Positions 3,931 to 58,357 of a stretch of DNA of 64,000 nt are shown here, piece after piece. Each line of letters starts with the position of its first letter. Position 1 is the first letter of the stretch. Origin of the DNA: a virus; IMG/VR virus record IMGVR_UViG_3300045988_075126, positions 1 through 64,000 of that record; one strand, given 5' to 3'. The notes under the pieces were generated by a model. That model did no database searches. It was given only the letters and a program-made list of their open reading frames with translations, and was not told the DNA's origin. A program made the translations under genes and the position numbers.

Positions 3931-4632
3931 ATGCAAGAACTAAAAAGAGCAAGAGAAATCATTGACGATGTTTCCAAGGAGACAGACAGTATATTGCTTT
4001 TCCATTCTTTGAGTGGAAAGGATTCTATCGTCTTGCTTGACTTATGTTACAAGAAGTTCAAGCGAGTTATTGTTGTATTCATGTATCTTGTGAAAGACTT
4101 GGAACATATCATGCGTTACTACAATTACGCTAAAGCCAAATACCCGAACATAGAATTTGTTCAAGTTCCCCATTATGCTTTGTTCAATTATATTAAGACA
4201 GGGTATATGGGAATAAAGCAGAATACAAAACAAAGGCAATGGACTCTAGCTGACATTACCGAGAAACTTAGGGAGAAGCTAGGAGTTGAGTGGGCTTGTT
4301 ATGGATTCAAACAATCGGATTCTTTGAACAGACGCCTTATGCTAAGAAGTTATACGGATGGGAAGGAAGCTATTAATTGGAAGACGAAGAAGTTTTATCC
4401 ATTATCTACATATAAGAATAAGGAGATTTTGGATTTTATTCTTGACCATCGCTTGAAGAACCCAGAGGTGTGTGGAACGAATAAGCAAAGTTCGGGAGTT
4501 GATATTGAAGATATAGAATACCAAAAGTATCTCAAAGAGTTATATCCGGCAGATTTGGAGAAGATATACGAGGTATTCCCTATGGCAAGGATAGTCATGT
4601 TAAAAGCTAATAATAAGGAGGAACTGAAATGA
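3931..4632 (+). CDS. PAPS-reductase-like PP-loop ATPase (paralog 1)
   Basis: 'LLFHSLSGKDSIVLLDL' is a PP-loop SGGxDS-like motif; about 45 percent identical by eye to 5410..6144. Confidence 0.85.
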   Translation: MQELKRAREIIDDVSKETDSILLFHSLSGKDSIVLLDLCYKKFKRVIVVFMYLVKDLEHIMRYYNYAKAKYPNIEFVQVPHYALFNYIKTGYMGIKQNTKQRQWTLADITEKLREKLGVEWACYGFKQSDSLNRRLMLRSYTDGKEAINWKTKKFYPLSTYKNKEILDFILDHRLKNPEVCGTNKQSSGVDIEDIEYQKYLKELYPADLEKIYEVFPMARIVMLKANNKEELK

Positions 4633-5408
4633 AAAAAGGAAGTGAAACAAAGATAATAAAGAGGTCTCAGATAAATCTGAACCCTTGTAATCCGAAGGTA
4701 CATACCGATGCAGACATCAAGCAGCAGAAAGCTAACATAAAGAAAGTTGGTCTCATTGGTGGTATTCAATGGAATGAGACAACAGGCAATCTTATAGATG
4801 GACATAAACGAGTGATGAGTGTTGACCTTATCCAAGGTTATGATGGAACTCCCGAAACGGATTATGACATCAAGGTAGAAGCCGTTGATTTTGATGAGAA
4901 GACCGAAAAGGAGCAGTTGTTGTTTATGGCGAAGTCGCAAGACCCGATAGATTACAATTTGGTTGCTAAGAATTTCAGTATAGACGAAATAGATTTCAAG
5001 GCTGCTGGCTTCACGGAACAGGACACTGAACAAATAAAAATGTTGCAAGATGATTTGGAAGCATCTTTAAAAGAGTCTGGTATGAATGACTTCAGTGAGG
5101 ATTTTCTGAATGAACCGATGGCTTCTGTAGCTGAGCCAGTACCAATGACGGAATTGCCAAACATAGAAAAAACATCTGAAGAGATTGTAGCCGAGCATGC
5201 TGCCAAGCCTAAGATGACAAAGGAAGAGGTTAAAGAGCAGAAGCAACATTGTACTGATGTCGGCATGAAAAGGCAGGAAGATATTGATAACTTCATATTT
5301 ATCGACTTTGAAAGCTTGGAACAGAAGCAGCTGTTTTGTGATATGCTGCACATGGTAGCCACTAGCTCTATGCGTGTTTCCGGAAGTCAGGTCTTAGGTT
5401 TATTGTAA
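4629..5408 (+). CDS. ParB N-terminal (ParB/Srx) nuclease-like domain protein
   Basis: 'GGIQWNETTGNLIDGHKRV' resembles the ParB-box DGHHR/GxxR motif; ATGA overlap with the upstream gene. Confidence 0.8.
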   Translation: MKKGSETKIIKRSQINLNPCNPKVHTDADIKQQKANIKKVGLIGGIQWNETTGNLIDGHKRVMSVDLIQGYDGTPETDYDIKVEAVDFDEKTEKEQLLFMAKSQDPIDYNLVAKNFSIDEIDFKAAGFTEQDTEQIKMLQDDLEASLKESGMNDFSEDFLNEPMASVAEPVPMTELPNIEKTSEEIVAEHAAKPKMTKEEVKEQKQHCTDVGMKRQEDIDNFIFIDFESLEQKQLFCDMLHMVATSSMRVSGSQVLGLL

Positions 5409-5409
5409 T

Positions 5410-6144
5410 ATGGGACGTAAGCGAGTAAAGCCTCTTGTAGTGAGGAAAAATCCCATAGAAGTTGCCAATATGGTAATTGATATGGTTAGGGAACAGAGTC
5501 CAGATTGCATTGTTATGATGTCTCTTGGCAAGGATTCCATTGTTACATTGGACTTATTGTATGATAAGTTTGAACGGATAGTGTGTGTATTTATGTATCT
5601 CGTAAAAGACTTGGAACATATACAGCGATGGATAAACTGGTTGAGGGCAAGATACCCGAAGATAGAGTTCGAGCAAATTCCGCATTGGAATACTACATAC
5701 AATCTTCATTATGGGGTGTATTGTGTACCGAACCCAAAGGTAAAGGTACTTAATCTTTCTATGGTCGTAAAAGCCTTAAAGATACGTTTCGGAATAGAAT
5801 ACGTGTTCTTTGGTATGAAGAAAGCAGACTCGATGAACCGTAGCCTTATGTTGAAGTCTTATGAGGATGAAAATTACATTCATGGTGGGAATTGTTATCC
5901 TCTTGCTGATTTTACTCAAAAACAAATCCTTCAATATATGAAGCATCGGCATCTACCTAAGCCGATAATGTACTCCAGAGCATTGCGATCAGAGAATGCT
6001 GAGGTGGGGAATGCATCAGGAGGTTTGTCTTTGGACTTGGATTGTTTTGCATGGCTAAGGGATAATGCACCTGAAGACTTAGAGCGTATATATAAGGTGT
6101 TTCCGCAAAGTAGGGTGATTCTTTATAGGTATGACAACAAGTAA
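5410..6144 (+). CDS. PAPS-reductase-like PP-loop ATPase (paralog 2)
   Basis: 'VMMSLGKDSIVTLDLL...FMYLVKDLEHI' parallels paralog 1. Confidence 0.85.
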   Translation: MGRKRVKPLVVRKNPIEVANMVIDMVREQSPDCIVMMSLGKDSIVTLDLLYDKFERIVCVFMYLVKDLEHIQRWINWLRARYPKIEFEQIPHWNTTYNLHYGVYCVPNPKVKVLNLSMVVKALKIRFGIEYVFFGMKKADSMNRSLMLKSYEDENYIHGGNCYPLADFTQKQILQYMKHRHLPKPIMYSRALRSENAEVGNASGGLSLDLDCFAWLRDNAPEDLERIYKVFPQSRVILYRYDNK

Positions 6145-7991: not shown

Positions 7992-8752
7992 TTATAGGTT
8001 CAATGACAGGGCGTGAACTCTTTGAGATATTCAAGAAGGATAAGCCTATGCTAGAAAAATTTGCTATCGAAAAAGCAAAGAAGCTCATCCGTGAACTTCG
8101 AAAGGGAATGGGGCAATGTACTACTCAATGTTATGATTTCAAGACGAAAGACTCTACCGAGTACAAAGTATGCGTGTATGTAAATAGAGGAAACATCAGA
8201 CAATTCTATTTCGATATGTTTATCTATTGCAAGGAGACGAATGATTATGTATGTGCTACTTCCTTGTTGGACGAAGAGAATAGCGCAGAGCAGTTCAGTT
8301 ATACGCCCCATTTCTTACGAAGATATGCCGAGCGAGCATTGGGAATAGAGAATATGCCAATTAATAGGGTTTTAGCCCATATTGAAAGAGAAGTGGCTTA
8401 TACGGTGCTTATTTATAAGAATGATACAAGCAAGGTTGTCGCTACGAGTATGGGGCTTTATCTGCAAAAGATTGACTATAAGCGAGGTATTAATATTTGC
8501 AAGACTTTTGTTAGCGTAGATATGCTTAGATCTTCCCAAATTAAAGCATATATGGTAGTTGCCGACTTAATTAAAGAATATTCTGAACGATACACTAAAG
8601 TTCAAAGGAATGATAATGTACAGGTAGATTTCGCTAAAGATTGTTTGGCAAGAGGTATAACAGAAAAGGATTTGATTGAAGCTTATGGCGAATATTTCAA
8701 GAACAAAAAAATAAAAGAAAGGGGTTCGTATGGAGAGAATGACAAGAAATGA
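7988..8752 (+). CDS. Hypothetical protein (254 aa)
   Basis: Compact same-strand ORF. Confidence 0.7.
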   Translation: MIIGSMTGRELFEIFKKDKPMLEKFAIEKAKKLIRELRKGMGQCTTQCYDFKTKDSTEYKVCVYVNRGNIRQFYFDMFIYCKETNDYVCATSLLDEENSAEQFSYTPHFLRRYAERALGIENMPINRVLAHIEREVAYTVLIYKNDTSKVVATSMGLYLQKIDYKRGINICKTFVSVDMLRSSQIKAYMVVADLIKEYSERYTKVQRNDNVQVDFAKDCLARGITEKDLIEAYGEYFKNKKIKERGSYGENDKK

Positions 8753-9728
8753 TGCTGCTGCTTATTTAGGTGTTGACCCTCAAACGGTAACGAATTGGGT
8801 TAACAAGGGTTTGCTTGGAGGCTACAATGATAAGAGCAGTAAACGCTTTTGGGTGAATGCAGATGATGTTAAGAAGTATTCCGAGAAGTACAAGATGTTG
8901 TCAGTTACAGAAGACTTGCTTGATAGAGAACAGAAAGAGTTGCTGGCAAGTGAGCGCAAGGTAAATGCGAAGATACAAATGTTAATGCATGATGCCTTGA
9001 ACGTTTCTTCTTTCAGCTATGACAAGATAGGCGGTTCACTTTGTACGTTATTGGAGTTAACGTCACAAGGTGGAATGCGAGAGAAGAAGATTATGCAAGC
9101 ATTTTTTAATGGCGACAGAATTAGTAATATAGCCTACGAGTTTGGACTTTCAAGGGAGAGGGTGCGCCAGATTGTCATTAAGGCTATCCGGAAGTTCAAT
9201 TATGCGGTTGAAGAACTTGCTGATTTGAAGCAGGAGAACAATTCCTTGAAAGAAGAAATTAAGAATGTAAAAATGCAGTTGATAATGCAAGAGGGTGAAA
9301 AAGAAGAAGAACTTTCAGAAGATGTTCCTCCTTCAGTGTTCTCTATCCGCTTGGTAAATTGTAATTTACCAGTACGTGTTCTTAATGTGACAAAGGCAGC
9401 CGACATAGATACTATTGGAGATTTGGTACAATATTCCAAGTTCGAAATGGTAAAATTCAGAAACTTCGGAAAGAAAAGCCTTATGCAATTGGATGAATTC
9501 ATACACGAAATGGGCTTGGAATGGGGAATGGATAAGGCAAAGATATACGCAAGAGGTGTTCAGCGAATGAAGGATGACACTTACATTGAAGAGCTGTTTA
9601 GGATACATCTTGCGGACATAACAAGCGATATTGAGAAAAAGTATAATCTTTCTCCGGCTGAGGCTATGAAGAGAGCTTATAGTGAAATGAAGAGATATGT
9701 AGGATTTAAAGAGAAGAGCAATGAATGA
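8730..9728 (+). CDS. Chimeric transcription factor: excisionase/MerR-type HTH + sigma-70 region-4-like + RNAP alpha-CTD-like domains
   Basis: 'AAAYLGVDPQTVTNWVNKGLL'; 'FGLSRERVRQIVIKAIRKF'; 'LPVRVLNVTKAADIDTIGDLVQ...FRNFGKKSLMQLDEFIHEMGLEWGM'. Confidence 0.8.
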   Translation: MERMTRNDAAAYLGVDPQTVTNWVNKGLLGGYNDKSSKRFWVNADDVKKYSEKYKMLSVTEDLLDREQKELLASERKVNAKIQMLMHDALNVSSFSYDKIGGSLCTLLELTSQGGMREKKIMQAFFNGDRISNIAYEFGLSRERVRQIVIKAIRKFNYAVEELADLKQENNSLKEEIKNVKMQLIMQEGEKEEELSEDVPPSVFSIRLVNCNLPVRVLNVTKAADIDTIGDLVQYSKFEMVKFRNFGKKSLMQLDEFIHEMGLEWGMDKAKIYARGVQRMKDDTYIEELFRIHLADITSDIEKKYNLSPAEAMKRAYSEMKRYVGFKEKSNE

Positions 9729-9996
9729 AGTATATAACGATGTTTTAGGTAAGGTATTAAACATTAAATCAAACAATAATATTGCCGTTAAAGTTGAACA
9801 AGGAGCATTAGAAGTTAATCTGAAACAATGCAGTGTAAAGCGCATTATGTGGTTCTCTGTCTTCTTGATTGATGGGTTTACTATGCGACCATGTAGCTAT
9901 ACTTTCTATTCCTCTATGAGTGATGACGAGTTGGATGATACATTTACACAAGTAGAAGACAGATTGGAATTTCTGAAAAACTTAAATTCTAAATGA
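9721..9996 (+). CDS. Hypothetical protein (91 aa)
   Basis: ATG overlapping the upstream stop. Confidence 0.55.
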   Translation: MNEVYNDVLGKVLNIKSNNNIAVKVEQGALEVNLKQCSVKRIMWFSVFLIDGFTMRPCSYTFYSSMSDDELDDTFTQVEDRLEFLKNLNSK

Positions 9997-10184: not shown

Positions 10185-10826
10185 ATGGCGGATAGAGGAT
10201 ATAGAGGCAGACCTCAACGAGGCGAAAGAGCGGATAGGCAAATCAATGCCGGACATAGCCGTGGCTTGGATGCGGCTTTGTCCGACACTGAAGCTAAGAT
10301 TAGAAAGTTAAAGACAGAACGTATTTATGCTTTCGACCAAAATGGAAAAGAGATAAGCCATTCCACAAAAGGTACTTCTACAAGTACGAAATTGCCAAGT
10401 GGTTACAATTACAAAGATGCGATATTGACGCATAACCACCCAGGAGAAGGGTTGGATAGCAATATTGCAGGTAGGATAGGAAGAAGCTTTAGTAGTGCAG
10501 ATATTGCTACTACGGTCATAAATAACGCATCAGAGATAAGAGCTATCACAGGCTCTTATACATACTCTATGAAAAGACCGAAGAATGGTTGGGGAATAAG
10601 TACGCAACGTCAAGCCGTGAATGTTGCAAGAAAAATAAAGGATAGGCGTATGAAATATTTTAATTCATATGTCGCTAAACCAAGTTCCGATTACACTCAC
10701 GGAAGAATAAGTAGAGAGCAGTTGTCAATTGCTTGGGACAGAGCTGATGTAGTTAGTACTAATAAAGCTCTTCGTGAAGTCGCAAAGGAATTAGGTTGGA
10801 ATTATACTCGCAAGCGTACTAGTTAA
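10185..10826 (+). CDS. Hypothetical protein with JAB/MPN-like 'HNHP...SxxD' motif
   Basis: 'AILTHNHPGEG...SFSSADI'; basic N-terminus; late-class promoter. Confidence 0.7.
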   Translation: MADRGYRGRPQRGERADRQINAGHSRGLDAALSDTEAKIRKLKTERIYAFDQNGKEISHSTKGTSTSTKLPSGYNYKDAILTHNHPGEGLDSNIAGRIGRSFSSADIATTVINNASEIRAITGSYTYSMKRPKNGWGISTQRQAVNVARKIKDRRMKYFNSYVAKPSSDYTHGRISREQLSIAWDRADVVSTNKALREVAKELGWNYTRKRTS

Positions 10827-10852: not shown

Positions 10853-11296
10853 TTACCCCTCCTCATGTGGAAAGAACTTTCCCATCATCGCAAGCGCAGT
10901 AGTACATTTTTCAAATTGTTTTTGGAATCCGTACTTCTTGGCTCTCGATTGGTTGTGATGCAGGTCATTGATTTTGACTTGGATTGCAACCATATCTTTT
11001 GAGTCGATGATAGATTGTACGTAGTCGAAATACGGAACACCTTCCTTGTGGGTTAGAATGCATACACTATCGGCAATGTCTTTTCTTACTCCTAGTGATA
11101 ACAGCTTGTCGTAGGTCATATCCGTATCTTCTATCGTATCATGGAGAAATCCGACACAAATCTCTTCGGTGCTATTACCCATTTCTCCTACATGGATGGG
11201 ATGCAATATCACCGGAAGTCCAACCTTATCAATCTGTCCCTTGTGCGCCTCACAAGCAATGCGGAGGCACAACTCTATCATTTCAGAATCTTTCAT
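10853..11296 (-). CDS. HD-domain small alarmone hydrolase (SpoT/RelA hydrolase-like, SAH)
   Basis: 'AHKGQIDKVGLPVILHPIHV' and 'GFLHDTIEDT' match the HD(p)ppGpp-hydrolase signature. Confidence 0.85.
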   Translation of the reverse strand: MKDSEMIELCLRIACEAHKGQIDKVGLPVILHPIHVGEMGNSTEEICVGFLHDTIEDTDMTYDKLLSLGVRKDIADSVCILTHKEGVPYFDYVQSIIDSKDMVAIQVKINDLHHNQSRAKKYGFQKQFEKCTTALAMMGKFFPHEEG

Positions 11297-11522
11297 ATTC
11301 TTCTTTCGTTATTAACTCACCTAGTTCAAGAGCATCTTGTGCATAGGTGTTCTCATTAAACTTAAACTCTTTTGGCTTACGTCCTTTACCTTTAGGGTAA
11401 CACATAAGTTCTTTATTTACATATTGATAACGGACAACGATGTCATCCTCCCAATAGTAAACATAAACCGACTCTCCGTTTTTAAGGAGGTGGCTGATTT
11501 TGTTCTTATCTTTATTATTCAT
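11283..11522 (-). CDS. Hypothetical protein (79 aa), overlaps the SAH start by 14 nt
   Basis: The track start at 11549 is TTG inside the promoter; first ATG used. Confidence 0.6.
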   Translation of the reverse strand: MNNKDKNKISHLLKNGESVYVYYWEDDIVVRYQYVNKELMCYPKGKGRKPKEFKFNENTYAQDALELGELITKEEYERF

Positions 11523-11546
11523 AGTCTTTATCTCCTTATTACAATG

Positions 11547-11588
11547 CAAAGATATAAAAAAGATATTAAACTTGCAAATAAATTAATG
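11547..11588 (-). promoter_or_regulatory. Early-class promoter (CATTAATTTATTTGCAAG block, -7 TATCTTTG)
   Basis: The -33 block is identical to that of the promoter at 36190-36232. Confidence 0.6.
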
Positions 11589-11616
11589 TTTATTGCTTGA
11601 AATTTAAATATATTAA

Positions 11617-12231
11617 TTATTGAAACGTTGCATAGTAAGCTTGTTGCATAGATACCGACCTTTGTTTCTTGCCTCCGTTACTCTTGGCGGTTCTACTCTG
11701 CTCGTATAACGCATGTCCCCAACCGGATGGTTTCTTGGTCTCTTTATAGATTTCTCGCATGGTCTTCCCACCCAATAGCTTGTAGGCTATCGAGTAATTT
11801 TCCTTGGCGTAAATCATCTTGGCAGTGTTAACTTGTATCTCACCAATAAGTCCGGTCTTCTTGTTCCGGATATTGATGATGTTTCCTGAATAACCAGTAT
11901 CCAGTTTCTGTTCCTTGAGTCTTACGAACTCAAAGCCTTTGTATTTTCCTTTTAGGTCTTTTATTATTTTCGGTATTGACCCTTTATCTGCTATGATGGT
12001 TGTTCTGTACGAGTCCTTTATGTCTTTAATGCCATTAGCCTCGCCCTTAGCCTTACGTACTATGGAGTCAACACTCTTGTAATTAATAGGAGTGACTCTT
12101 GCTCCATATTTCTTAGCTATACCTTCCGCTATAGCTTGTAGCTTATTACCTACCGACTCGGCTTTTCTCCGCATTGAGGTTGCTTGTGCTCTCAGCCTAG
12201 CATATGTCCCATTATTACCTACGTCTCCCAT
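11617..12231 (-). CDS. RelA/SpoT-homologue synthetase-fold protein (small alarmone synthetase / toxSAS-like)
   Basis: 'YKSVDSIVRKAKG', 'IKDSYRTTII', 'GYSGNIINI', 'GEIQVNTAKMIYAKE' follow the order of the RSH synthetase motifs; the track start is TTG, ATG at 12231 used. Confidence 0.7.
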   Translation of the reverse strand: MGDVGNNGTYARLRAQATSMRRKAESVGNKLQAIAEGIAKKYGARVTPINYKSVDSIVRKAKGEANGIKDIKDSYRTTIIADKGSIPKIIKDLKGKYKGFEFVRLKEQKLDTGYSGNIINIRNKKTGLIGEIQVNTAKMIYAKENYSIAYKLLGGKTMREIYKETKKPSGWGHALYEQSRTAKSNGGKKQRSVSMQQAYYATFQ

Positions 12232-12243
12232 ATCTTTTTTGTG

Positions 12244-12251
12244 CAAAAGTA
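12244..12251 (-). promoter_or_regulatory. Possible -7 box (TACTTTTG on minus strand)
   Basis: TAnnTTTG, 13 nt upstream of the ATG at 12231. Confidence 0.35.
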
Positions 12252-12292: not shown

Positions 12293-12365
12293 TTTCACTA
12301 AAAAGACAAAGTGAAAAGACACGCAGACAAACATTCATCTTAAACAATTATTATTCATACCTTTG
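12293..12365 (+). promoter_or_regulatory. Late-class promoter: TTTCACT-N10-AGTGAAA, with -7 TACCTTTG (12358-12365) 48 nt after AGTG
   Basis: Direct reading. Confidence 0.6.
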
Positions 12366-12387: not shown

Positions 12388-13194
12388 ATGACGAAACCAA
12401 GAGATTATTTCACAGGCAAGCAAGAAGAGTTCAAACGCTCCGAAGTGCAGATAGCACCATATAATCCAAGGAAGATTTCACCGCAGCAGAAAGCTACATT
12501 GAAACGTTCCATAAGAAAATATGGCGTTGTTGGTGGTATAACCGTCAATAAGCAAACAATGACCATCGTAGGCGGCAACCAAAAAGTAACCATCGTGGAT
12601 GAGATTATGGGCTATCCCGAAAAGGATTATACTCTTTTGGCTGAGGCTGTAAATATGGATTACAAGACCGAAGTTGAACTGAATTTCATGCTTAATTCCG
12701 AGAATGCTCATGGAGAATGGGATGACATGAAAGTCCGTGAGTTACTTCCGGACATAAACTATATGGATGCCGGATTAACGGAAGAAGACTTATCCCTGTT
12801 CGGCTATGATGCAATGGTAAAGACTGAAGGCGAAGATGAGTTAGGTAAAGAACTTAATTCCTTACTAGACCCATTTGCCCAAGAAAGCGAAAACAGAAAA
12901 GTGCCAGCACCAAAGGAAGTGCAAGAAGAGCAGAGACGACAGATAGAACAAAATCAAATTATAGCCAATCAGCAGCAAGATGCTCAATATCAAGCGAATA
13001 AAGAGCGTATGCAACAGGTAAAGAAAGAGGTAAATACCAAGGCAGCGGAAAAAGCTTTAGAAGCCGAGTCTTACGTCATGCTATCCTTTGACAACATCGA
13101 AAACAAGGAACGCTTTATGAGCACCTTTGGCTTTATCGAAACCGATAAGGTAATAAAGGGAGAAATGCTTATGAAGGTTGCTAAACGCATATAA
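12388..13194 (+). CDS. ParB-like domain protein, paralog of 4629..5408 with a degenerate catalytic motif
   Basis: 'APYNPRKISPQQKATLKRSIRKYGVVGGITVNKQTMTIVGGNQKV' aligns to the 4629 protein, but DGHKR is replaced by GGNQK. Confidence 0.75.
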   Translation: MTKPRDYFTGKQEEFKRSEVQIAPYNPRKISPQQKATLKRSIRKYGVVGGITVNKQTMTIVGGNQKVTIVDEIMGYPEKDYTLLAEAVNMDYKTEVELNFMLNSENAHGEWDDMKVRELLPDINYMDAGLTEEDLSLFGYDAMVKTEGEDELGKELNSLLDPFAQESENRKVPAPKEVQEEQRRQIEQNQIIANQQQDAQYQANKERMQQVKKEVNTKAAEKALEAESYVMLSFDNIENKERFMSTFGFIETDKVIKGEMLMKVAKRI

Positions 13195-13582: not shown

Positions 13583-14161
13583 ATGGCAAAACCGAAATTT
13601 GATTACAATGGCGATGCTTTCTACGATGAGATAGAACAGCTTGCAAAGCAAGGTCAGAAGGATTCTGAAATTGCCTACGCCCTTGGTTTGAAGTTTGGGG
13701 TTGACCTAAATCCACAGGTCTTCAACCGAATGAAAAACGGAAAATACGAGAATTGGAATGAAGACGAAAATGCGGAAAGAGGCGAAAGGATAACTCAATC
13801 CCTCGTGCGTGGCAGAGAATTTATTAATGCAATCGTGCGTGGCAGATTCCTTAAATGCGCCCTTGGAGGTGTCAAGGTAAAAGGCAAGACAACCACCAAA
13901 AGACACATGGTTGTAGATGGAGTTATGACAGATGATATAGTAGTGGAAACTAGAGAAACTGAGCAGGAGACTCCACCTAACGTACAAGCTCTTTCTACTT
14001 GGCTATTCCATTATGATATGACTTGGAGAGAGATACAGAGAGGTAAGAAGGATGAAGAGGAAAAGGGCATTCCTTTTGACCCTAAGAAAGGTATATCCGT
14101 CAATAAGTGGATTGAAAGAGAGATAGAACAGGAAGCAGAAGAGCAAGGGGAGGGTGAGTAA
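13583..14161 (+). CDS. Terminase small subunit (putative)
   Basis: 192 aa with an N-terminal HTH-like segment, immediately upstream of and abutting TerL. Confidence 0.65.
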   Translation: MAKPKFDYNGDAFYDEIEQLAKQGQKDSEIAYALGLKFGVDLNPQVFNRMKNGKYENWNEDENAERGERITQSLVRGREFINAIVRGRFLKCALGGVKVKGKTTTKRHMVVDGVMTDDIVVETRETEQETPPNVQALSTWLFHYDMTWREIQRGKKDEEEKGIPFDPKKGISVNKWIEREIEQEAEEQGEGE

Positions 14162-15444
14162 TGGCTAAAACACATTCCGTTTATTATCCGTTATATAATG
14201 ACAAGACGCATTTCATTTACCTTATTACAGGAAGTCGTGCGTCAGGAAAAAGTTTCTCCGTCTCTCAGTTTATCGAAAGACTTACTTTTGAATACAATGC
14301 CGAAAGAAAGATAGCGCATAAGATTCTTTATACACGTTATACAATGGTGAGTGCCGCTATTTCCGTAATTCCAGAGGTTAAAGAGAAAATAGAGATTGAT
14401 GGCACACAGGATTACTTCAAGAACACGAAGACCGATATAGTCAATAAGATGACAGGAGCTGAAATCATGTTCCGTGGTATCAATACTTCTAGTGGTAATC
14501 AGACTGCGAAGTTAAAGTCAATCCATGGAGTGACTATATTTGTTGTTGATGAGGCTGAGGAGTGGACTAGCGAGGAAGACTTTGAGCGAATTATGCTCTC
14601 TATCCGTCAGAAAGGCTTGCACAATCGAGTAATAATCATTATGAACCCATGCGATTCCAATCATTGGGTATATAAGCGTTTTATAGAAAAGACACATAAA
14701 GAGGTGTATTTTGATGGCGTTCCCGTCCAGATCAGCACAGACCCAAGAGTGTTGCACATTCATACTACATATCTTGATAACATAAAGCATTTGTCACCGG
14801 AGTTCCTTAATGAGGTGTTGGAAATGAAGGAGAATGAACCGGAGAAATATGCTCATATAATGATAGGTAGATGGACTGACGTATCAGAGGGTGCAATATT
14901 CAAGCATGTTGGCATTGTGGATAAGTTCCCTAGCAACGCAAGGAAAGTAGCCATCGGAGTAGACTGGGGATATTCGAAAGACTATACTGCCATTGTGAAG
15001 TGTGGTATCGTAGATAATCGCCTGTATATAGAGGAACTTTGCTATAGAACGGAAATGTTGTCCAATGATATTATAAAATTCTTGCGCCCTTATGCGGAAG
15101 AAGGTTTGTTTGTGTATGCGGATAGTGCTGACCCTAGACTTATAGATGAGGTAGCTCTTGGTGGAATAGTCATATATGGAGCACAAAAGGGTGCTGGTTC
15201 GATATTGGCTGGTATTGACAAGATGCAGACATTCGAAATCTTCACTACTAGGCAATCAGTCCATTTACAGAGCGAGTTCCGTAAATATGTGTGGTCAAAA
15301 GATAAGGATGGTAATTACATCAATGTTCCGGAAGACCATGACAATCATTTAATAGATGCTGCTAGGTATTATATTCTAGCTGTATTGCTCGGTAAGGTAA
15401 TGAAGCCAAGGAAAGCATCAAAATCAGACTTAGGAGTGTACTAA
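14161..15444 (+). CDS. terL: Terminase large subunit (PBSX-type)
   Basis: Walker A 'GSRASGKS', Walker B 'FVVDEAEE', nuclease part 'GVDWGYSKDYTA', 'DHDNHLIDAARYY'. Confidence 0.92.
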   Translation: MAKTHSVYYPLYNDKTHFIYLITGSRASGKSFSVSQFIERLTFEYNAERKIAHKILYTRYTMVSAAISVIPEVKEKIEIDGTQDYFKNTKTDIVNKMTGAEIMFRGINTSSGNQTAKLKSIHGVTIFVVDEAEEWTSEEDFERIMLSIRQKGLHNRVIIIMNPCDSNHWVYKRFIEKTHKEVYFDGVPVQISTDPRVLHIHTTYLDNIKHLSPEFLNEVLEMKENEPEKYAHIMIGRWTDVSEGAIFKHVGIVDKFPSNARKVAIGVDWGYSKDYTAIVKCGIVDNRLYIEELCYRTEMLSNDIIKFLRPYAEEGLFVYADSADPRLIDEVALGGIVIYGAQKGAGSILAGIDKMQTFEIFTTRQSVHLQSEFRKYVWSKDKDGNYINVPEDHDNHLIDAARYYILAVLLGKVMKPRKASKSDLGVY

Positions 15445-15598: not shown

Positions 15599-15669
15599 TT
15601 CACTTAAAAACTAAGTGAAAGGCATACGTAAATTAAAGTGTGTAGAAACCATGTTTATTATTACCTTTG
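15599..15669 (+). promoter_or_regulatory. Late-class promoter: TTCACTTA-N5-TAAGTGAA, with -7 TACCTTTG (15662-15669) 48 nt after AGTG
   Basis: Direct reading. Confidence 0.65.
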
Positions 15670-15687
15670 CTTCAAAAAGTTATAAGG

Positions 15688-17100
15688 ATGTTTGTAGATT
15701 CAATTATTCAGATAAAGACATATTTTCGAAACCTCACGCTCAATGCGTTGGGTGTGGAGAGAAATATCTTCGAACGTTTGGAAGATAATGATGTTGATTC
15801 TGTCGTAAACATGATGGAACAACATGATTTCGATGTGGATAATGCCATTTCGGAATATAATCCGCAAACTCACAAGGTGATGAGCCGTGAGGATAAATGG
15901 GTAAAGGGAGAAAAACCATATAGGACGGAGAAGTTGGCAAGGACAAGGCAGAGATACATCAATGAGGTAGAGTTGTTCTTCTTGTTAGGTAATCCGATAA
16001 TGTGGAAGAAAGTAGAAGGTGACGATGAAGCCTTTGAGCTATACAAAAAATACTTGAAGAATATATACTTCAATACCAAGCTTCGCCAATGCAAGCGACT
16101 TGCCGGAGCGGAAACCGAAAGCGGACTTGTCTTTAATTTCTCGCAAAAAAACGGAGAAATGCATGTTGATGTATACGTAGCAGCACGTTCCAAAGGACAT
16201 AAGATGAGAGAATTGTTTGACCAATATGGAAATATGCTTGCTTTTGCGATAGGTTATTCCTTAAAGCGAGAGACAAGAACTGTTGAATGTTGGGATATAT
16301 TGACATCGGTCTTCAACTATCATTGTGAGCGTGGTGGCTTTGGATGGAAGGTGTATAAGTATCCTAATCCGACCGGAAAGATTAACGGCATCTACTTTCG
16401 CCAACCTAAATCATGGGATGGTGCAGAGCCAAGAATGGAACGTGAAGAGATGTTAGACTCCAAGATAGGAGATACGAACAACTATTTTGCCGACCCTATA
16501 GCTGCGGCAACCGCTGACGTGATACAATCAATCCCTAAGCGGAACAAGCCAGGCAAGCTGATACAATTGACAGGAAAGGATTCTAGGTTTGAATATATCA
16601 ATCCACCTCAGAACTCAGAAATTCGCAAGGCAGAGAAAGAGGACTTGGCTCAATCTATATTGTTTGATACATTTACACCGGATATGTCACCGGAACTGAT
16701 GAAAGCCATGAGTACGCTTACCAGTGTAGGTATAAAGCGAGCGTTGGTATTGGGCTACATCAAGAGGGCGAACCGAATGGAAATCTATGAAGAGCTTGTC
16801 GGTAGATTGTCGCATGTTATTATTGCCGTTATGAAGGAACTATATCCTGAAAAGAGAAGCAAGTTGGATAAGCTGGAAGTAGAGTTCGATTTCGCAGAGC
16901 CTTTTGAGGATGATAAAAAAGATAAGTGGAAAGTTATTGCGGAACTATACAATCAAGGTGTCCTGTCTCTAGAGACCGCTGTCCAAATGTTGGCTCTTAC
17001 GGATGCTCCAGCAGAAGAAATAGAAAAGATACGGAAGGATGCAGAAGATAAAGTAGCGTTAGCCGCAAAAGTAAGGGGAAACGAAAATACAACTTCATAA
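15688..17100 (+). CDS. Portal protein (putative)
   Basis: 470 aa, directly after TerL; the track start at 15667 is TTG within the promoter, first ATG used. Confidence 0.65.
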   Translation: MFVDSIIQIKTYFRNLTLNALGVERNIFERLEDNDVDSVVNMMEQHDFDVDNAISEYNPQTHKVMSREDKWVKGEKPYRTEKLARTRQRYINEVELFFLLGNPIMWKKVEGDDEAFELYKKYLKNIYFNTKLRQCKRLAGAETESGLVFNFSQKNGEMHVDVYVAARSKGHKMRELFDQYGNMLAFAIGYSLKRETRTVECWDILTSVFNYHCERGGFGWKVYKYPNPTGKINGIYFRQPKSWDGAEPRMEREEMLDSKIGDTNNYFADPIAAATADVIQSIPKRNKPGKLIQLTGKDSRFEYINPPQNSEIRKAEKEDLAQSILFDTFTPDMSPELMKAMSTLTSVGIKRALVLGYIKRANRMEIYEELVGRLSHVIIAVMKELYPEKRSKLDKLEVEFDFAEPFEDDKKDKWKVIAELYNQGVLSLETAVQMLALTDAPAEEIEKIRKDAEDKVALAAKVRGNENTTS

Positions 17101-17712: not shown

Positions 17713-20700
17713 ATGAAAACTTTCAAGGAAATCGACATAAAGTACTACGATAATAGCGGAAACGTACAAGTAAGATGTACTGTTCCTGTTACACAAGAAG
17801 CATCAGTTCATTATGAATTGATGCAGTCTCACTATTGTAAACTTTCGTTTAACCTTTCTAGACCGACATATTTCTTGCGTGGTGATTTTATCGAAACACC
17901 ATATGGGCGATTTGAGCTTATAGATTTAACTAAGGCCAAAGATAATGATACTATTGGGTATTCCTACGAAATCCAATTCGATGCCTATTATCGTAAGTTA
18001 AAGAATAAGATCCTGAAGTATCGCCCGAATACAGGTTCACAAGAATCGACATTCTCTCTTACTTCAAAAATTAGTACTCATATAGAAGTGATAATGAAAA
18101 ATCTAGCTTATTATGCGAAGTTAGATAAGTCTTACCTTTATGACCCTAATTTTGAAGGAGAAGGAACGGATTATACTTATGTTATAGATGCGAGTGTAGA
18201 TGCGAATGCTGCAAAGCTTATAACTTACTCTAATACAAGTATATTGGATGCTATTGCGAATATAGCTCAGACGTTTGGTTGTGAATGGTGGTTTGAGGGA
18301 AATATACTGCATTTTGGAACTTGCGAGAATACGAATGCTATTACTGATTTCAGACTTAACGATAATATCGTTTCTATGTCAAGCTCACAAAGCCAATCCA
18401 CTTATGCAAACAGGGTATATGCTTTTGGAGCTGCAAGGAACTTGCCTAGCGGATATAAGAATGATGCTGATGCGGATATAACAAAGGATGGTGTTGTTGA
18501 AAAACGTCTCATGCTACCAAATTCAGCAGAATGCTCTGACAAGAACAAGCAATTGCTGGCAGAGAATGGCTTTGAACTGAAAAATGGATATATACAAGTT
18601 AGTGGACTCCGTGAAGACCAGTATGTTGAGGGAGTAACTACAAATGATGATATTTATCCAAGAAATCTTATCAAGACTTCTAAGGTAACATCATATGAAA
18701 AAGATGTAGAAGATGAAAGTACACCCGAAGAAGGAGATTACATCAAACGGACTTTTTATCGTGTTAATTCGCTTGCTATTGTCAATGAAGATGGCGAAAA
18801 AACAGGTGATATGGCTTTCCGAAAGGCGTATATTCTTAGTGGCAAGAACTTACATATAGTATTTCAAAGCGGTTCTCTTAATGGTATGGACTTCGAATGT
18901 GAGTTTAATCCAGATGGAGTTTCTGAAATACTTAAGGACGATGATGGTAATCCGATATTGAAAGATGGAAAAGAACAGATAAATCCTAAGTCGCAGGTAT
19001 TTGAGATTGTTGCTAATGAGGATTATGGTCGTTTCTTGCCGGATATAACTTTGCACCCGAAGGATGGAGATACTTTTGTTCTCTATAATTGGGATTCTAC
19101 CAAATTGGGTGATACTTTAGTTTCTTCCGCTTCCAATGAGTTGCTGACGGATGCCATAAAGGATTTGAAGAAGTCCATGATAGACCCTACGACATATACA
19201 TGTACCGCTGAGGCTAACTATTCCTATAATCAGGGTAGGGGTAACTTGCATGGAGTAGGAGACAGAGTAAATCTTTATAATAAAGGTTATGGTGACAGTT
19301 ATAGGGCTTCAAGAATTATCGGTTATGAGTTTTGTCTAGATATTCCTTATGATGGAGCAAAATATTATGTTGGAGAAAAACCGTCATATTCACGACTCAA
19401 TGCAATGGAGTCTAAAATTGAGGAACTTGTCTATAATGGACAGAGTTATCTTAATGGTAATGGCGGAAGCGGAAGGTCGATTTACATCATTAAGAGTTAT
19501 GATAGCATAACTCCTACGGATTATAATGTATTTTCAGCAAAAGCTGTTGATGAACAAAGATTAAACAAGACAAAGGACGACACCGCCAAGGGCACAATCA
19601 CTTGGGAGAAGGTACAGAAGCTTTTAAGTGGATTGCTTGTCGGTAACTTCAACAATGAGAACGGCGGCTCGTGGACTCCCGATACAGAAGGTCGTTCGCA
19701 TCTCATCACAGATTACCTGGAGGTGAGGATGAAGGCTATATTCGAGGAGCTTGTAATCAAGAAAACCTCCACCATCGGTGGCAAGGAGATTATCTCTCCT
19801 GCTGGTGGCGTGGTGGCTCACAAGGTGGAAGAGGTTACTGTGACATATAATAATGTGTCACAGAAGGCTTATCGTTGCTATTTCTTAGCAGAGCAGGAAG
19901 GTGATGCCGTAGATAATGATTTCTCCGTTAACGACCAAGTGCGCTCGGAATCATTCAATGTTCGCAAGGGCACTTACCATAAGGTGGGTAATCACTTCTA
20001 TTGGCGATTGGTAATCGGTCGTGACGAGGAACCCGTAGAGCTGGAAGGAAAGAAGTATCATTATATCGACCTCTCGGATACCGATTGCGCTACTGCAAGC
20101 GATGTTCCTGCCAAAGGTGATGTATTGTCGCAGTGCGGTAATAGAACCGATGTAGAACGTCAGAACTGCCTTATCTTCTCGGCGGTAGATACCTATTCGC
20201 CATTCGTCAGCTTGTACCACGGTATAAATAGCTACTCTTTTGCCAACAAAGAATACGTAGAGTATGGTGTAAACAAACAGACTAACAAGGCATTTTTTAA
20301 TGTTTATGGCGATATGTATGTGGGCGACCGACCTACTAAGGAGAATGGCTATGAGGGTAGTAGCTACATCAAGTATGACAGCGCAGCCAAGCAGGTATCT
20401 ATTAAGGGTAAGCTTTCGGCGAAATCTACCGTGGATGGCAAGGAACTGTCTCAGTATATCAAGGAGAACTCAGCAGGAGGCTTGACCGAGGAGCAGGTGA
20501 ACAATCTCATCAAGAACTCGCAGGTGATAGCTGACCTTCAGAATCAGGTTGACGGAGCTATCGAGACGTGGTTTTACGATGGTGTGCCTACTTTGAAGAA
20601 TGCCCCAGCCAGCAGTTGGACGACAGACAAGGAAAAAGATACCCATTTGGGCGACCTTTATTATGATAACAAGACGGGCAAGGCATACCGCTTTGCCAAG

Positions 20701-23700
20701 GATGGCAACACCTATAAGTGGACTATCATTACAGATACCGACATCGCCAAAGCTCTATCCGATGCCAGCAAGGCACAGGAGACCGCAGATGGCAAAATGA
20801 AGGTGTTCAGTACACAGCCTATTCCGCCTTATCAGTTGGGCGACATTTGGGTAAACGCTACCTATCCTACAGATGGCAGCATCTACAAGAATGAAATCCT
20901 GCGCTGCCAGACTGCCAAGGCAAAAGGTTCGTCATTTGCCATCGCTGACTGGACTAAGGCTTCCAAGTACACCGATGATTCTGCCCTCAATATCTTCAAG
21001 GAAGAGTACAAAAACGATATGGCTAGCTACAAGGAGCAGCTTGATGAGAAAGTAGAGACCTGGTTCTACAACTATGCTCCTACTACTCAGAATAAGCCTG
21101 CTTCTGACTGGACTACCGATACATTGAAGTCGCAGCACGCTGGCGACCTGTTCTACAATACGTCTAATGGCTACACATACCGTTGGACGGGTACGGCATG
21201 GGCGAGAATCAAGGATAACGACATCAACACTGCTATGACCGCAGCAAGCAAGGCGCAGGACACGGCAGATGGAAAGCGTACCGTTTTCACCTCTCAGCCT
21301 ACTGTTCCTTATGACGAGGGCGATTTATGGGCTAGCGGCGGAGATGATGGCAAGACTCTGATGGTGTGCGTTAAGAGTAGAGCCACTGGCAGCTTCACCT
21401 CATCAGAATGGGTAAAGGCTAATGATTCCGACCTCAACGCATTCGCCAAGACCATAGAGGAGAGCTTGACGGGAATACGAGACCAGCTCGACAAGAAGGC
21501 TGAGACTTGGTATCAGCCTTCTGACCCGAGTACATCTTGGACTACCGATGATGCGAAGAAGGAGCATAAGGGCGACCTGTGGTATAACACAAACAACAAC
21601 CAGACTTTCTTTTGGAATGGTACGAAATGGGATAAACAGGATGTGCCTACCGAGGTCTTCGACAAGATAGATGGCAAATCCAGCATCTATGTAAGCAAGC
21701 CTGCATCCTATGAGGAACGTGACCTCTGGATTTTGGAAGCAGCATATACCCTCGGTGGTGTTGCATATTCCAAGGGCGAGCTTGTCGTGGCAACCAAGAG
21801 CAATGCTTCATTCAGCGCAGCCGATTGGACTAAGAAAGTGAAGTACACAGACGATACTGTAGCGAACGCAGCAAAGAAGGCAGCGGAAGAGGCGAAGAAG
21901 GCGGCAGATACCGCACAGACGAATGTTACGAATCTCGGCAAGACCGTTACAAGCAACAAGAAGGCATTCGATAATTATGTTACGGATGGCTATCTAGAGC
22001 CTTCTGAGATTGCGGCTATGGCGCAGGATTCCAAGCGACTTGAAGATGCTTTTGCAGCCGCCGAGAAATCTTACACTGAGGTGAAGGAAGCAGCGGTACT
22101 GAAGGACACCAAGGAACTCACTGACCTCAACACTGCTTTCGCTACCCTCACGACTGCCAAGACGGAACTCGTTACGTATCTCTCAGATATTTCGGCAAGA
22201 TACAATGCGGCTAATACTGAGAAAAAGGCTACCATCGTTTCAGCCGTAGGAACGAAGTTCACCAACTTCCAGTCAGCATACAGCGCATTTTATGACAAAT
22301 TGGGTTTGGCAAACGCCTATATCACTAGCAAGATATATGGCGACTTGAAGCAGAATATTACCGACCTTGCAGGCTACAAGTATATCAAGGACGCACTCGG
22401 TCAGACAACAGATATTGATGGCGGTCTTGTAATGACAACACTCCTTGCTTTGAGAGACGCAGACGGAAACGTTCAGAGTGGTATCAACGGAGCGATAGAC
22501 ACGAACAGAGGAAAGAAGAGCATCGCAACTTGGTGGGGTGGTCAGATGGTGGATAAGGACTACAATAGCGGAAGCCTTACTCCTGCTACTTCCCTCGTTC
22601 GCTTTGACGGTTCGGGCTATCTCGCAAATGGTGCAATCTGGTGGGACGTGGACGGAAAGGTTCACGCTGACCCTACATCATTTATCATCAGCGAGAAGAA
22701 TCTTGGCGCATACCTTGCATTCTTTGAGCCTACATGGAAGAGCGGTAGCAATGGCACTAACATAAAAGACCTTGTGGCTTTGACTCCGCAAGCTCCTTTT
22801 ACGACACTCAGCGTAAGCAATGATTTGTTGGTAGAGGGAAAGCTTAAATTAGGTAGTATTACCCTCAGTGTGGTAAATGGTGCTTTGAAGATTGACGGCA
22901 ATGTGTATTCCACAGGTGGAATGAGCGCATACGGCGATGGTACTAACAATGGTGGTGGCGGTGGCTTGGTCGCAAGCGTGAAGAGCTACACAGACATCAT
23001 CAAAGGCACGTATACAGACAATGACTTGGCAAGCATTCCTAACGCTTATGCCATCAAGGCTCTCAGCAATCGAATCGACAACATCAGTTCTGAACTTGGT
23101 GGTCTTAGCTTGGATTGGGCAAACATCACAGGAAAGCCTTCTACTTTCACTCCTAGCGCACACACGCACAAGTGGGTGGATATTACAGACCGTATCACCA
23201 AGGTTTCTCAACTTACGAATGATAGCGGCTACACCACAAACAAGGGAACGGTAACATCGGTTAAGCTAACTTTGCCAACTGGATTGTCTCTTGGTACGAC
23301 AAAGGAAATCACAACAAGTGGAACTTTCGCCATAAGCTTGACTTCGGGTTATTCCATCCCTACGACATCAAAGCAAGGGCAATGGGATTCTGCCTACAAT
23401 TGGTACAAATTAATGACTACCGATGAGGAAACAGCTGATGGTGTTATCAACAAGTGGAATGAGGTCGTGAATTTCCTTACTGGCATTGCGCAGACAGACA
23501 CCTTGGATGGCATACTCAGCGGCATCAACAATTCTATCACGGAAGAAGCTAACAGGGCAAAGAAGGCAGAGGGTGCAAATGCTACAAACATTGCCACAAA
23601 CAAGGCGAACATAACAACCTTGCAAGGCTACTTCACGAATGGCTCGGCGAAGTCCGCCATCAAGCTGACCAACGCACGTAAACTTTGGGGTAACAGCTTT

Positions 23701-42044: not shown

Positions 42045-42593
42045 ATGGCAGACTCAAGTATTTTAAAACCATTCATTCTCTCATTCGAGGGTGGATATTC
42101 TAACAAAAAGAGTGACAGGGGAGGCGCAACGATGAAAGGTGTGACCCTAGAGACGTTCCGTAAAGTTTATGGTGCTAGTAAGACCGCATCGGACTTGAAG
42201 AAGATAACCGATGAACAATGGCATCACATATTCAAGAAATACTATTGGGATGCTTGTAAAGCTGACCAAATCAACAACCAGTCGGTGGCTAATCTCTTGG
42301 TTGACTTTGCTTATAATAGTGGAGTAAGCAGAGCCGTACAAAAGATTCAGACTATCGTAGGAACAAAAGCTGATGGTATCATGGGTAACATGACCTTGGC
42401 TGCTATCAATTCATACAAACAAGGCCAATGGTCGTTGTTCGATAAGTTGAAGGTGTCACGAATTGCCTTTCTCAATGCGTTTGTGAACAATGACCCAAAG
42501 CAAAGTGTGAACCTGCATGGATGGCTTCGAAGAGTTGGAAATATACAATACGGAAAGCTCGTATGTAACAACGGAAAGATAATCACTTGGTAA
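42045..42593 (+). CDS. Endolysin, GH108-type muramidase with a C-terminal peptidoglycan-binding domain
   Basis: 'ILSFEGGYSNKKSDRGGATMKGVT' matches the GH108 EGGY...D.GG.T..G signature. Confidence 0.85.
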   Translation: MADSSILKPFILSFEGGYSNKKSDRGGATMKGVTLETFRKVYGASKTASDLKKITDEQWHHIFKKYYWDACKADQINNQSVANLLVDFAYNSGVSRAVQKIQTIVGTKADGIMGNMTLAAINSYKQGQWSLFDKLKVSRIAFLNAFVNNDPKQSVNLHGWLRRVGNIQYGKLVCNNGKIITW

Positions 42594-51894: not shown

Positions 51895-52151
51895 TGAAGA
51901 TTGAACCAAGTGAGTTCTTGCCGATAGGTAATGAGTTTCAGAAAATCTTCGGTGTAAGCTTTGGAAAGTTCATTGATATGCGGTTTCTTTTGGCAAGAAA
52001 AGAGCTGGTCTTCAACTTGCTGAAGTTCACAGACTGGCTTGAAGAACGTTATCCGGATGAGTGTTCCATTGATGGAGTGAGTTACAATGCGGTTGTCGGG
52101 CGAAAGTTTGGCAAGCGAGGTGTTAAAATGATTAAGAAGTTGATAGGATGA
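51894..52151 (+). CDS. Hypothetical protein (85 aa)
   Basis: ATG overlaps the upstream stop. Confidence 0.6.
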   Translation: MKIEPSEFLPIGNEFQKIFGVSFGKFIDMRFLLARKELVFNLLKFTDWLEERYPDECSIDGVSYNAVVGRKFGKRGVKMIKKLIG

Positions 52152-58323: not shown

Positions 58324-58357
58324 TTACCATCCCTTATGGGATATAAATATAAGAAAT

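Follow-up and report, generated by a model that had tools for sequence, protein, structure and literature searches.

Known (p)ppApp toxin systems and the cassette

The closest described system is an operon of a Bacteroides caccae temperate phage (locus tags BACCAC_01148-01146), in which a MuF-fused (p)ppApp synthetase, Apk2/BcTas1, is followed by BcTis1 and then by Aph1, whose structure has been solved (PDB ID: 7SMG; Ahmad et al. 2023, PMC10083569). Toxicity has been shown for Apk2 and partial protection for BcTis1 and Aph1 individually, and Aph1 is specific for (p)ppApp (PMC10083569). From ATP, Apk2tox makes only (p)ppApp; the hydrolase type of immunity is interchangeable, whereas the Tis1 type is partner-specific (PMC12226406). 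A similar arrangement is found in the 64,000-nucleotide (nt) stretch of viral DNA analysed here (positions 1 to 64,000 of IMG/VR record IMGVR_UViG_3300045988_075126; hereafter, the window). Three genes at 10853-12231 of the minus strand, antisense to the flanking phage operons (Table 1), probably constitute a self-contained (p)ppApp toxin/immunity cassette of a temperate Segatella/Prevotella phage. Comparisons of sequences and structure models identify its three parts, with high confidence, as a putative Apk/Tas1-type synthetase, a Tis1-type inhibitor, and an Aph1-like hydrolase; by analogy with the characterised enzymes, the product of the toxin is quite likely (p)ppApp.

An operon of the B. 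caccae type is also carried by another IMG/VR locus (L183), which encodes a MuF-Apk2 of 538 amino acids (aa), a 75-aa Tis1-like protein, and a 143-aa Aph1 identical to 7SMG save for one substitution in the overlap. The three proteins of the window match their counterparts in this locus at 46% identity for the synthetase against the Apk2 toxin domain (190 aa; E 2e-45), 30% for the 79-aa protein against the BcTis1-like protein (E 2e-5), and 39% for the HD-domain protein against Aph1 (E 8e-25). Owing to these pairwise matches and the identical gene order, the cassette is homologous, gene for gene, to the characterised system. The two also resemble each other in that the tis and aph genes overlap or adjoin and that both reside in temperate phages of human-gut Bacteroidota, and the context known for the Apk2 family (a downstream tis1-like gene, a variably present aph gene, and a temperate phage) is found here as well. 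The preliminary description of the window, made from the letters alone, had held the extra small gene, the Bacteroidota context, and the hydrolase to set this copy apart; these are exactly the features of the published Apk2-BcTis1-Aph1 operon. Differences lie elsewhere. The B. caccae toxin is the C-terminus of a MuF fusion of about 540 aa located after the portal gene, whereas the toxin of the window is a free-standing protein of 204 aa. In the window, the cassette is encoded on the opposite strand, with the early region on one side and the ParB-like/terminase operon on the other, and has an internal consensus promoter before the immunity genes. Its hydrolase belongs to a divergent subfamily.

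Another point of reference is an effector/immunity pair of a type VI secretion system (T6SS), Tas1 (Apk1)-Tis1 from Pseudomonas aeruginosa PA14 (PDB ID: 6OX6), whose members are the best PDB matches, in sequence and in fold, of the toxin and of the 79-aa protein. Both toxins have the EIQVN motif and the catalytic D, R, E, and Q, and the immunity proteins are alike in length (77 vs 79 aa) and in a C-terminal ITxEEY; identity is about 33% for the toxin and 26% for the immunity protein. Unlike this pair, the cassette is phage-borne, lacks a PAAR domain and a T6SS context, and contains an extra, enzymatic immunity gene. MuF-Apk fusions of Bacillota and Pseudomonadota prophages resemble it in that phage Apk domains are accompanied by a specific binder and a universal hydrolase as immunity factors, but they are fusions, whereas the toxin of the window stands alone. 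The syn3 motif differs among these proteins, reading GxN in the Streptococcus pneumoniae Apk2 toxin domain (PMC12226406), GVN in Tas1, and GYSGNIIN in the toxin of the window.

The synthetase toxin

The preliminary description had proposed a toxic phage small synthetase of the RelA/SpoT type with an adjoining small alarmone hydrolase (SAH) as antidote in a Bacteroidota phage. This core reading is supported by the sequence and model comparisons: the three minus-strand open reading frames (ORFs) are all present as described, and each of the motifs quoted at the time (YKSVDSIVRKAKG, IKDSYRTTII, GYSGNIINI, GEIQVNTAKMIYAKE, HKGQIDKVGLPVILHP, and LHDTIEDT) is found in the translations. The synthetase matches the Tas1 toxin domain (PDB ID: 6OX6_A) over residues 23-201 (phmmer E 2.1e-18). 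Its AlphaFold2 (AF2) model (predicted local distance difference test, pLDDT, 87.6; predicted template-modelling score, pTM, 0.80) has the same domain as its best PDB neighbour in Foldseek (E 4e-13, template-modelling score, TM, 0.76-0.79), while the TM reaches up to about 0.65 for RelP, RelQ, SAS1, and an exported alarmone synthetase of Streptomyces (PDB ID: 8VX3) and is 0.49 for CapRel. Among 55 PDB matches at E<=1e-3, all 50 listed are synthetase-domain proteins of the RelA/SpoT homologue (RSH) superfamily (Tas1, RelP, RelQ, SAS1, CapRel, Rel, and SpoT). By its match to 6OX6_A in both sequence and fold, the protein is therefore placed among RSH-fold synthetases and not in a non-RSH nucleotidyltransferase family. 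The profile searches suggested earlier with RelA_SpoT and HD_4 do return matches, which stay below threshold. For the toxin, PF04607 RelA_SpoT scores 17.9 bits (E 0.0038, cutoff 27) and covers profile positions 3-109 of 113; for the hydrolase, HD_4 scores 13 bits. Pfam by itself is thus equivocal for both proteins, and the comparison with solved structures is decisive.

The SYNTH fold is present with its catalytic, Mg2+-binding Asp and the Glu of the EIQ motif, which correspond to the invariant D73 and E131. Across 35 homologues, the invariant residues are K52, K60, D73, R76, K106, G113, G116, E131, Q133, and N135, of which D73, R76, E131, and Q133 align with D327, R330, E382, and Q384 of Tas1. 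Residues R330, K353, N370, E382, and Q384 are involved in ATP binding and catalysis in Tas1 (PMC12691689). The motifs had been described as divergent, with Asn replacing the Arg of EIQxRT. The Asn is indeed there, but it does not indicate divergence: it is present in Tas1 (EIQVNS) and invariant across the family, so EIQVN is a hallmark of the Tas1/Apk lineage and no degenerate motif. On sequence and model alike, the toxin is assigned to the Tas1/Apk lineage of (p)ppApp toxins as an RSH-fold synthetase. Its start codon is likely the ATG at 12231, since the N-termini of the homologues are conserved and begin where this codon lies, and the ATG together with an upstream -7 box is kept in relatives; an in-frame upstream TTG would add five residues.

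The locus had also been called a module like those of toxic small alarmone synthetases (toxSAS), e.g., FaRel/ATfaRel with its SAH antitoxin, PhRel2, FaRel2, and CapRel (Jimmy et al. 2020, PMC7229694). The likeness holds for the layout, in which a single-domain toxic synthetase lies beside one or more antidotes, one of which can be an SAH; moreover, FaRel also makes (pp)pApp and these modules are associated with mobile elements and prophages (PMC7229694). It does not hold for the sublineage, which is that of Tas1/Apk and not of FaRel, PhRel, or CapRel (TM 0.76-0.79 to Tas1 against 0.49 to CapRel), and a Tis1-type inhibitor corresponds to no known toxSAS antitoxin class. A search of the synthetase with PADLOC gave no significant match, the best two being unrelated models at E 0.02-0.04 (best E 0.022), and NCBIfam gave none. 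Membership in a toxSAS subfamily was rejected on the PADLOC result and the nearest structure being Tas1; assignment to a curated defence system was likewise rejected, NCBIfam being empty and the PADLOC matches weak and unrelated.

Relatedness to the toxSAS enzymes raises the alternative that the synthetase acts, like FaRel2, PhRel2, and CapRel, as a tRNA 3'-CCA pyrophosphokinase that blocks translation, with the HD protein removing the tRNA modification. Kurata and colleagues reportedly found in 2021 that small alarmone hydrolases can reverse tRNA pyrophosphorylation. The common RSH fold and the Foldseek matches to CapRel agree with such an activity. Nevertheless, the toxin is far closer to Tas1 and, at the identity given above, to Apk2tox, which both make (p)ppApp (PMC10083569, PMC12226406), and the EIQVN motif of the Apk type, the Tis1-type partner, and the PADLOC outcome also speak against it, so that tRNA modification is very improbable.

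The immunity proteins

The product of the middle gene is recognized by the Pfam profile PF24154 Tis1_ImmP below threshold (E 1.7e-4, 22.1 bits, cutoff 27) and matches Tis1 (PDB ID: 6OX6_B) over its full length (phmmer E 0.012). Its AF2 model (pLDDT 94) has 6OX6_B as the top Foldseek match (TM 0.62-0.65, root-mean-square deviation 1.8 A). A C-terminal G-x-x-I-T-K/R-E-E-Y motif is common to the 79-aa protein, P. aeruginosa Tis1, and BcTis1, and a hidden Markov model of the family finds a Tis1-like ORF beside nearly all synthetase loci. With its Tis1 fold, its size, the C-terminal motif, and its position immediately downstream of the Apk domain, the protein is assigned to the Tis1 immunity family and predicted, by analogy with Tis1, to bind the toxin and occlude its active site. 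This inhibitor is probably the primary immunity factor.

The ORFs of the inhibitor and the hydrolase overlap by 14 nt (11283-11296). As the preliminary description had stated, the latter encodes an HD-domain protein with canonical motifs, and its best-supported relative is Aph1 (7SMG, E 7e-20), ahead of the hydrolase domains of Rel and SpoT; it also matches phrog_990 (E 2e-32). The residues of the HD fold and active site are conserved in the alignment (H18, H32, H52-D53, E56-D57, D111, and N115). The specificity signature of Aph1 consists of D24, R96, D116, R119, K133, and Y134 (PMC10083569). Two of these are retained (D23 for D24 and K130 for K133), R119 aligns with K120, which lies beside an R118 invariant in the subfamily, and R96, D116, and Y134 are replaced by S95, S117, and C131, so that the six-residue signature is incomplete. 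The divergent subfamily, represented by the window and L002, L004, L009, and L012, is further marked by a 4-aa deletion. Judged by its sequence, the protein is best described as a putative Aph1-like (p)ppApp-type hydrolase of this subfamily and a second, enzymatic immunity factor.

The presence of such a hydrolase could also be read differently: the synthetase/hydrolase pair may serve non-toxic signalling that tunes host physiology, or the hydrolase may act mainly in counter-defence, disarming (p)ppApp-based abortive-infection toxins of the host, the toxin being secondary. A phage Aph could neutralise foreign toxins, given that the hydrolase type of immunity is interchangeable between Apk toxins (PMC12226406), Aph homologues are widespread without toxins (PMC10083569), and the hydrolase of the window represents a divergent subfamily. 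The tight linkage of toxin, Tis1, and Aph, the strong constraint on the toxin (see below), and the fact that every Apk domain tested so far is toxic point to a genuine pairing of toxin and immunity and make this improbable.

Absence of a delivery domain

The feature that genuinely distinguishes the cassette, which the preliminary description did not mention, is the missing MuF delivery domain. Bounded by stops, the toxin ORF has at most 226 codons from stop to stop, its N-terminus is a hydrophilic helix, and the protein equals only about residues 337-538 of Apk2, i.e., the C-terminal toxin domain of the MuF fusions. It contains no MuF, PAAR, or signal-peptide domain, and thus has neither the MuF fusion of Apk2 nor the PAAR/T6SS association of Apk1; the surrounding genes are phage genes and not a T6SS locus. 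As the defining MuF domain is absent, the cassette is not classable as Apk2. Within the window, no Phage_Mu_F Pfam match and no HPxCRC motif in a credible ORF was found, and a MuF N-terminal profile built from the fused relatives, which is heterogeneous and weak, had no match. PHROG and Pfam scans of the giant tail-fibre-like ORF and about 35 further ORFs of the window detected neither MuF nor a major capsid protein. The gene after the SPP1-type portal encodes a 159-aa tail-like protein, followed by that 4847-aa ORF, and not a MuF protein.

Fusion is the rule among the relatives of the toxin. Most of those in reference genomes are fusions of 460-600 aa, the fused relatives L010, L012, L014, L016, and L183 have 510-540 aa, and the GWHPxCRC end of the MuF domain is kept in several long homologues. 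In the 150 closest cluster representatives, drawn from 1.84 billion proteins, the Apk domain is located at the C-terminal end of a longer protein in 90, internally in 19, and N-terminally in one; the remaining 40 are short and standalone-like, some of them perhaps truncated calls. In a neighbour-joining tree, the clade of the window joins two other standalone phage copies (L004 and L006), beside the Bacteroidota MuF fusions. Standalone Apk genes are therefore a sizeable architecture, undiscussed in the cited Apk literature.

Two observations concern other relatives of the toxin. Some (P0049, P0051, P0055, P0062, and P0078) are fused to an XkdF-like phage protease domain (PF14550) and not to MuF. 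A 282-aa relative in a bacterial chromosome (L005, 5033-7117) adjoins a gene with an ADP-ribosyl exotoxin domain and small convergent ORFs, possibly forming a toxin-cassette island.

Phage, host, and selection

The phage is temperate, as indicated by its integrase and helix-turn-helix (HTH) regulator and by the integrase end, which abuts bacterial genes in L195 (GH2 beta-galactosidase) and L196 (dnaN, coaBC); in L193 and L194, this end meets phage genes, including S24 repressor-like, Rad52-like, and NinG genes. A contig that was assigned to Segatella copri by binning contains a copy with 100% identity, and this assignment together with the enriched Bacteroidota promoter motifs described below points to Segatella/Prevotella as the host. 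The Waltera (Lachnospiraceae) label of one relative (L009) was set aside as a probable binning artefact, the phage gene order being the same. The phage is common: the 90% cluster of the toxin has 1149 member sequences, the index of the collection lists the integrase in 175 blocks, and the region is found on about 70 IMG/VR contigs with lengths of 50-130 kb. Among annotated phage genomes, the sole match is the unannotated faecal contig MT835636.1. Every informative relative has all three genes, and relatives with 62-69% toxin identity have the same cassette in the same position. IMG/VR searches with the neighbouring ParB-like protein and its alignment returned only near-identical phages, none of which lacks the cassette.

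The cassette is under strong purifying selection. The ratio of nonsynonymous to synonymous substitution rates (dN/dS) is 0.015 for the toxin (37 distinct alleles, dS 0.27), 0.013 for the tis1-like gene (17 alleles), and 0.086 for the aph-like gene (8 alleles), and about 95% of relatives have an intact toxin gene. In the natural toxin-null alleles, codon 75, 141, or about 178 is the site of a frameshift or an in-frame stop; in L091, the aph gene is frameshifted as well. These occasional alleles, together with the exact correspondence of the toxin to the C-terminal domain of MuF fusions, could suggest a fission relic, i.e., a decaying and now functionless remnant of a MuF-Apk2. The low dN/dS at appreciable divergence, the high proportion of intact copies, the conserved start codon and promoter, and the retention of the gene at 62% identity in diverged phages make such a relic hardly credible; the selection analysis largely rules it out.

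Promoters and regulation

The preliminary description had placed a separate promoter for the downstream genes at 11547-11588. A perfect site of the Bacteroidota type is found at 11547-11578; its pattern, TTTG-N20-TATCTTTG, has 14 occurrences in the window, where 3.1 are expected (about 4.5-fold enrichment), and none of 100 shuffles attained that number. Conservation was assessed in relatives with 62-88% toxin identity. The -7 element and the TTG of the -33 element are kept in L001, L002, and L009 (the full TTTG only in L001); the flanks diverge. The distant standalone loci L004 and L006 also have -7 boxes before the downstream gene. An extended form, TTTGCA(A/T)G-N16-TATCTTTG, is present at 2514, 6294, 11547 (minus strand), 36190 (minus strand), and 54869, and these five near-identical sites seem to form one class of host-type consensus promoters, to which the promoter of the immunity genes belongs. 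A scan for E. coli-type terminators and sigma-70 promoters was uninformative, the host being a member of the Bacteroidota.

The toxin gene is preceded by a -7 box only, which is kept in L001 and L009, is not clearly present in L002, and by itself lacks statistical significance. The corresponding promoter would have a very short leader and might be weaker or activator-dependent. Differential control of toxin and immunity genes is suggested by these features. The divergent operon encoding the ParB-like protein, TerS, TerL, and the portal likewise has a -7 box and no -33 TTTG. Between the two lies the inverted repeat TTTCACT-N10-AGTGAAA, unique in the window and centred about 57-59 nt from each divergent -7 box; its arms are kept in L001, L002, and L009, its spacer varies, and its flanks have diverged. 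Rfam and repeat scans of the cassette revealed no RNA antitoxin or other element.

A 332-aa protein encoded at 8730-9728 and conserved in all relatives has an HTH_17 domain at its N-terminus together with a sigma-70 region-4-like segment and the C-terminal domain of the RNA polymerase alpha subunit (PF03118, E 3e-14). This protein may act as a transcription appropriator or late activator, and the inverted repeat is a candidate binding site for it.

Proposed mechanism and role

By analogy with the characterised enzymes, the toxin would transfer pyrophosphate from ATP onto the 3'-OH of ATP, ADP, or AMP, thereby draining the ATP/ADP pool and producing (p)ppApp. The Tis1-like protein would block the active site of its cognate toxin, while the hydrolase would turn (p)ppApp back into ATP, ADP, or AMP and might neutralise foreign Apk toxins as well. 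With a consensus host-type promoter to itself, the immunity pair could be held in excess, and the toxin gene, with its single box and near-leaderless start, would be transcribed antisense in the manner of a moron. Given that no MuF, PAAR, or signal-peptide delivery domain is present, the toxin is taken to act inside the producing cell, like that of a toxin-antitoxin or addiction module. A role of this kind in the lysogen (prophage maintenance or addiction, abortive infection, or superinfection control) is tentatively favoured, at a little under even chances.

Several observations weigh against this reading or parts of it. The Pfam matches to RelA_SpoT, Tis1_ImmP, and HD_4 are all under their gathering cutoffs. 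The counterparts of Tas1 K353 and N370 are ambiguous, lying in a gapped region of the alignment; candidates nearby are the invariant K106 and N117 or N120. With three of the six Aph1 signature residues missing, the substrate preference of the hydrolase is insecure. The absence of MuF holds for the window of about 64 kb alone, and contigs of this phage reach 100 kb or more, so that a MuF protein or a different carrier may be encoded in another part of the genome. Nonsense or frameshift alleles of the toxin with an intact tis gene occur in L001 (8001-8618), L046, L091, and L095. The cassette is fixed and core-like in the phage lineage and not a variable accessory island, and the toxin promoter shares its conserved inverted repeat with the late packaging operon; both points fit a role in the lytic programme of the phage as well as one in toxin-antitoxin activity or defence.

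The last three points also favour a late lytic effector combined with lysogen immunity, in which the toxin is switched on with the packaging/late operon and either shuts down the ATP/purine metabolism of the host or enters virions in trans for injection. Lysogens would then be shielded from the toxin of superinfecting kin phages by the tis1/aph pair with its constitutive promoter. The toxin and ParB-like/TerS/TerL promoters both lack a -33 element and are equidistant from the unique repeat, and the immunity genes have a consensus promoter of their own. Along with the fixation of the cassette, the toxin is under very strong purifying selection; tis stays intact in the toxin-null alleles; most relatives of the toxin are fused to virion-internal proteins (MuF or XkdF-like PF14550); and standalone copies in other phages likewise adjoin terminase genes. 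On the other hand, neither MuF nor any other recognisable packaging domain or capsid-targeting signal is present on the toxin, the inverted repeat is only a candidate regulatory site, an infection role is not established even for MuF-Apk2 (PMC10083569), and the antisense orientation is more typical of morons expressed from a prophage. A late effector is the main rival explanation, but an unlikely one. A more specific form is somewhat less likely again. In it, the toxin is no toxin-antitoxin or defence gene of the prophage but a late activator-controlled effector co-regulated with the packaging operon via 12293-12316, which would either make host ATP and purine metabolism collapse as infection ends or reach new cells with no covalently attached MuF anchor, and phages would have turned a polymorphic-toxin system to the exclusion of superinfecting phages; with a late effector, the divergent Aph subfamily might also disarm (p)ppApp-based abortive-infection toxins of the host.

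Other features of the window

The coordinates of the cassette, its candidate regulatory sites, and the surrounding phage genes are collected in Table 1.

Table 1. Features of the cassette and of the surrounding phage genome (positions in the window)
Feature	Position	Strand	Remarks
Toxin/synthetase gene	11617-12231	minus	204 aa from ATG; 209 aa from in-frame upstream TTG at 12246
tis1-like gene	11283-11522	minus	79 aa
HD hydrolase gene	10853-11296	minus	147 aa
Consensus Bacteroidota promoter, TTTG-N20-TATCTTTG	11547-11578	minus	inside the cassette, between toxin and immunity genes
Toxin -7 box, TACTTTTG	12242-12249	minus	10 nt upstream of the toxin ATG; no matching -33 TTTG
Inverted repeat, TTTCACT-N10-AGTGAAA	12293-12316	unstranded	unique in the window; candidate regulator-binding site
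-7 box of the divergent ParB-like/TerS/TerL/portal operon, TACCTTTG	12358-12365	plus	no -33 TTTG
Integrase	371-1552
HTH regulator	2018-2458
PAPS-reductase/ParB-like genes	3931-6144	plus	trio: PAPS-reductase-like, ParB-like (phrog_9353), PAPS-reductase-like
Sigma-region-4/alpha-CTD-like regulator	8730-9728	plus	332 aa
91-aa ORF	9721-9996		ATG at about 9721
ORF convergent with the hydrolase gene	10185-10826	plus	213 aa
ParB-like	12388-13194	plus	directly upstream of TerS
TerS	13583-14161
TerL	14161-15444
SPP1-type portal	15667-17100
Tail genes	17231 onward
Tail-fibre-like ORF	17713-32256	plus	4847 aa
Endolysin	42045-42593
DNA methyltransferases, HNH endonuclease, two radical-SAM-like proteins	45533-46582, 48501-49748, 52148-52873, 58178-59904		right half of the window

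The ORF convergent with the hydrolase gene has no family match; a JAB/MPN-like motif (THNHPGEG...SFSSAD) was recognized by eye only. At the ATG of the 91-aa ORF, at least eight IMG/VR contigs of this phage, all of one sample series, start or end within 8 nt, which could reflect either a genome terminus or a variable region at which assemblies break. The giant ORF follows the portal and the 159-aa Dit-like tail protein, and contains tail and tail-fibre PHROG domains and a C-terminal Peptidase_S74 chaperone domain. Its 3' four-fifths (about 20-32 kb) have a GC content mostly of 0.47-0.49, compared with 0.35-0.39 in most of the window, and relatives have a much shorter orthologue (2740 aa in L001; in L002, a call of 1678 aa whose gene runs beyond the end of the locus).

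The ParB-like gene upstream of TerS is a second paralogue of the one within the phosphoadenosine phosphosulfate (PAPS) reductase-like trio of the early region, and the PAPS-reductase-like and ParB-like genes may represent a DNA-modification module. The methyltransferases and associated enzymes encoded in the right half of the window constitute an extensive DNA-modification repertoire.

Implications

Work on a related phage, whose host is also related, has already characterised all three parts of the cassette and their arrangement, and no new biochemical principle is involved. What makes the cassette a variant of a known system is the toxin's lack of a delivery domain, together with the internal promoter of the immunity genes and the divergence of the Aph subfamily. 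Toxins that make (p)ppApp are a recently recognised, ATP-draining means of bacterial killing. The cassette constitutes a natural case lacking the delivery domain. Its carrier is a temperate and very prevalent phage of the major human gut commensal Segatella copri, and the cassette is useful for its separable regulation of toxin and immunity and its strong evidence of selection. The divergent Aph subfamily offers a test case for the published specificity signature, and the cassette as a whole could help to decide where phage Apk toxins act: in the cell that produces them, as in addiction and abortive infection, or in the cell being infected.

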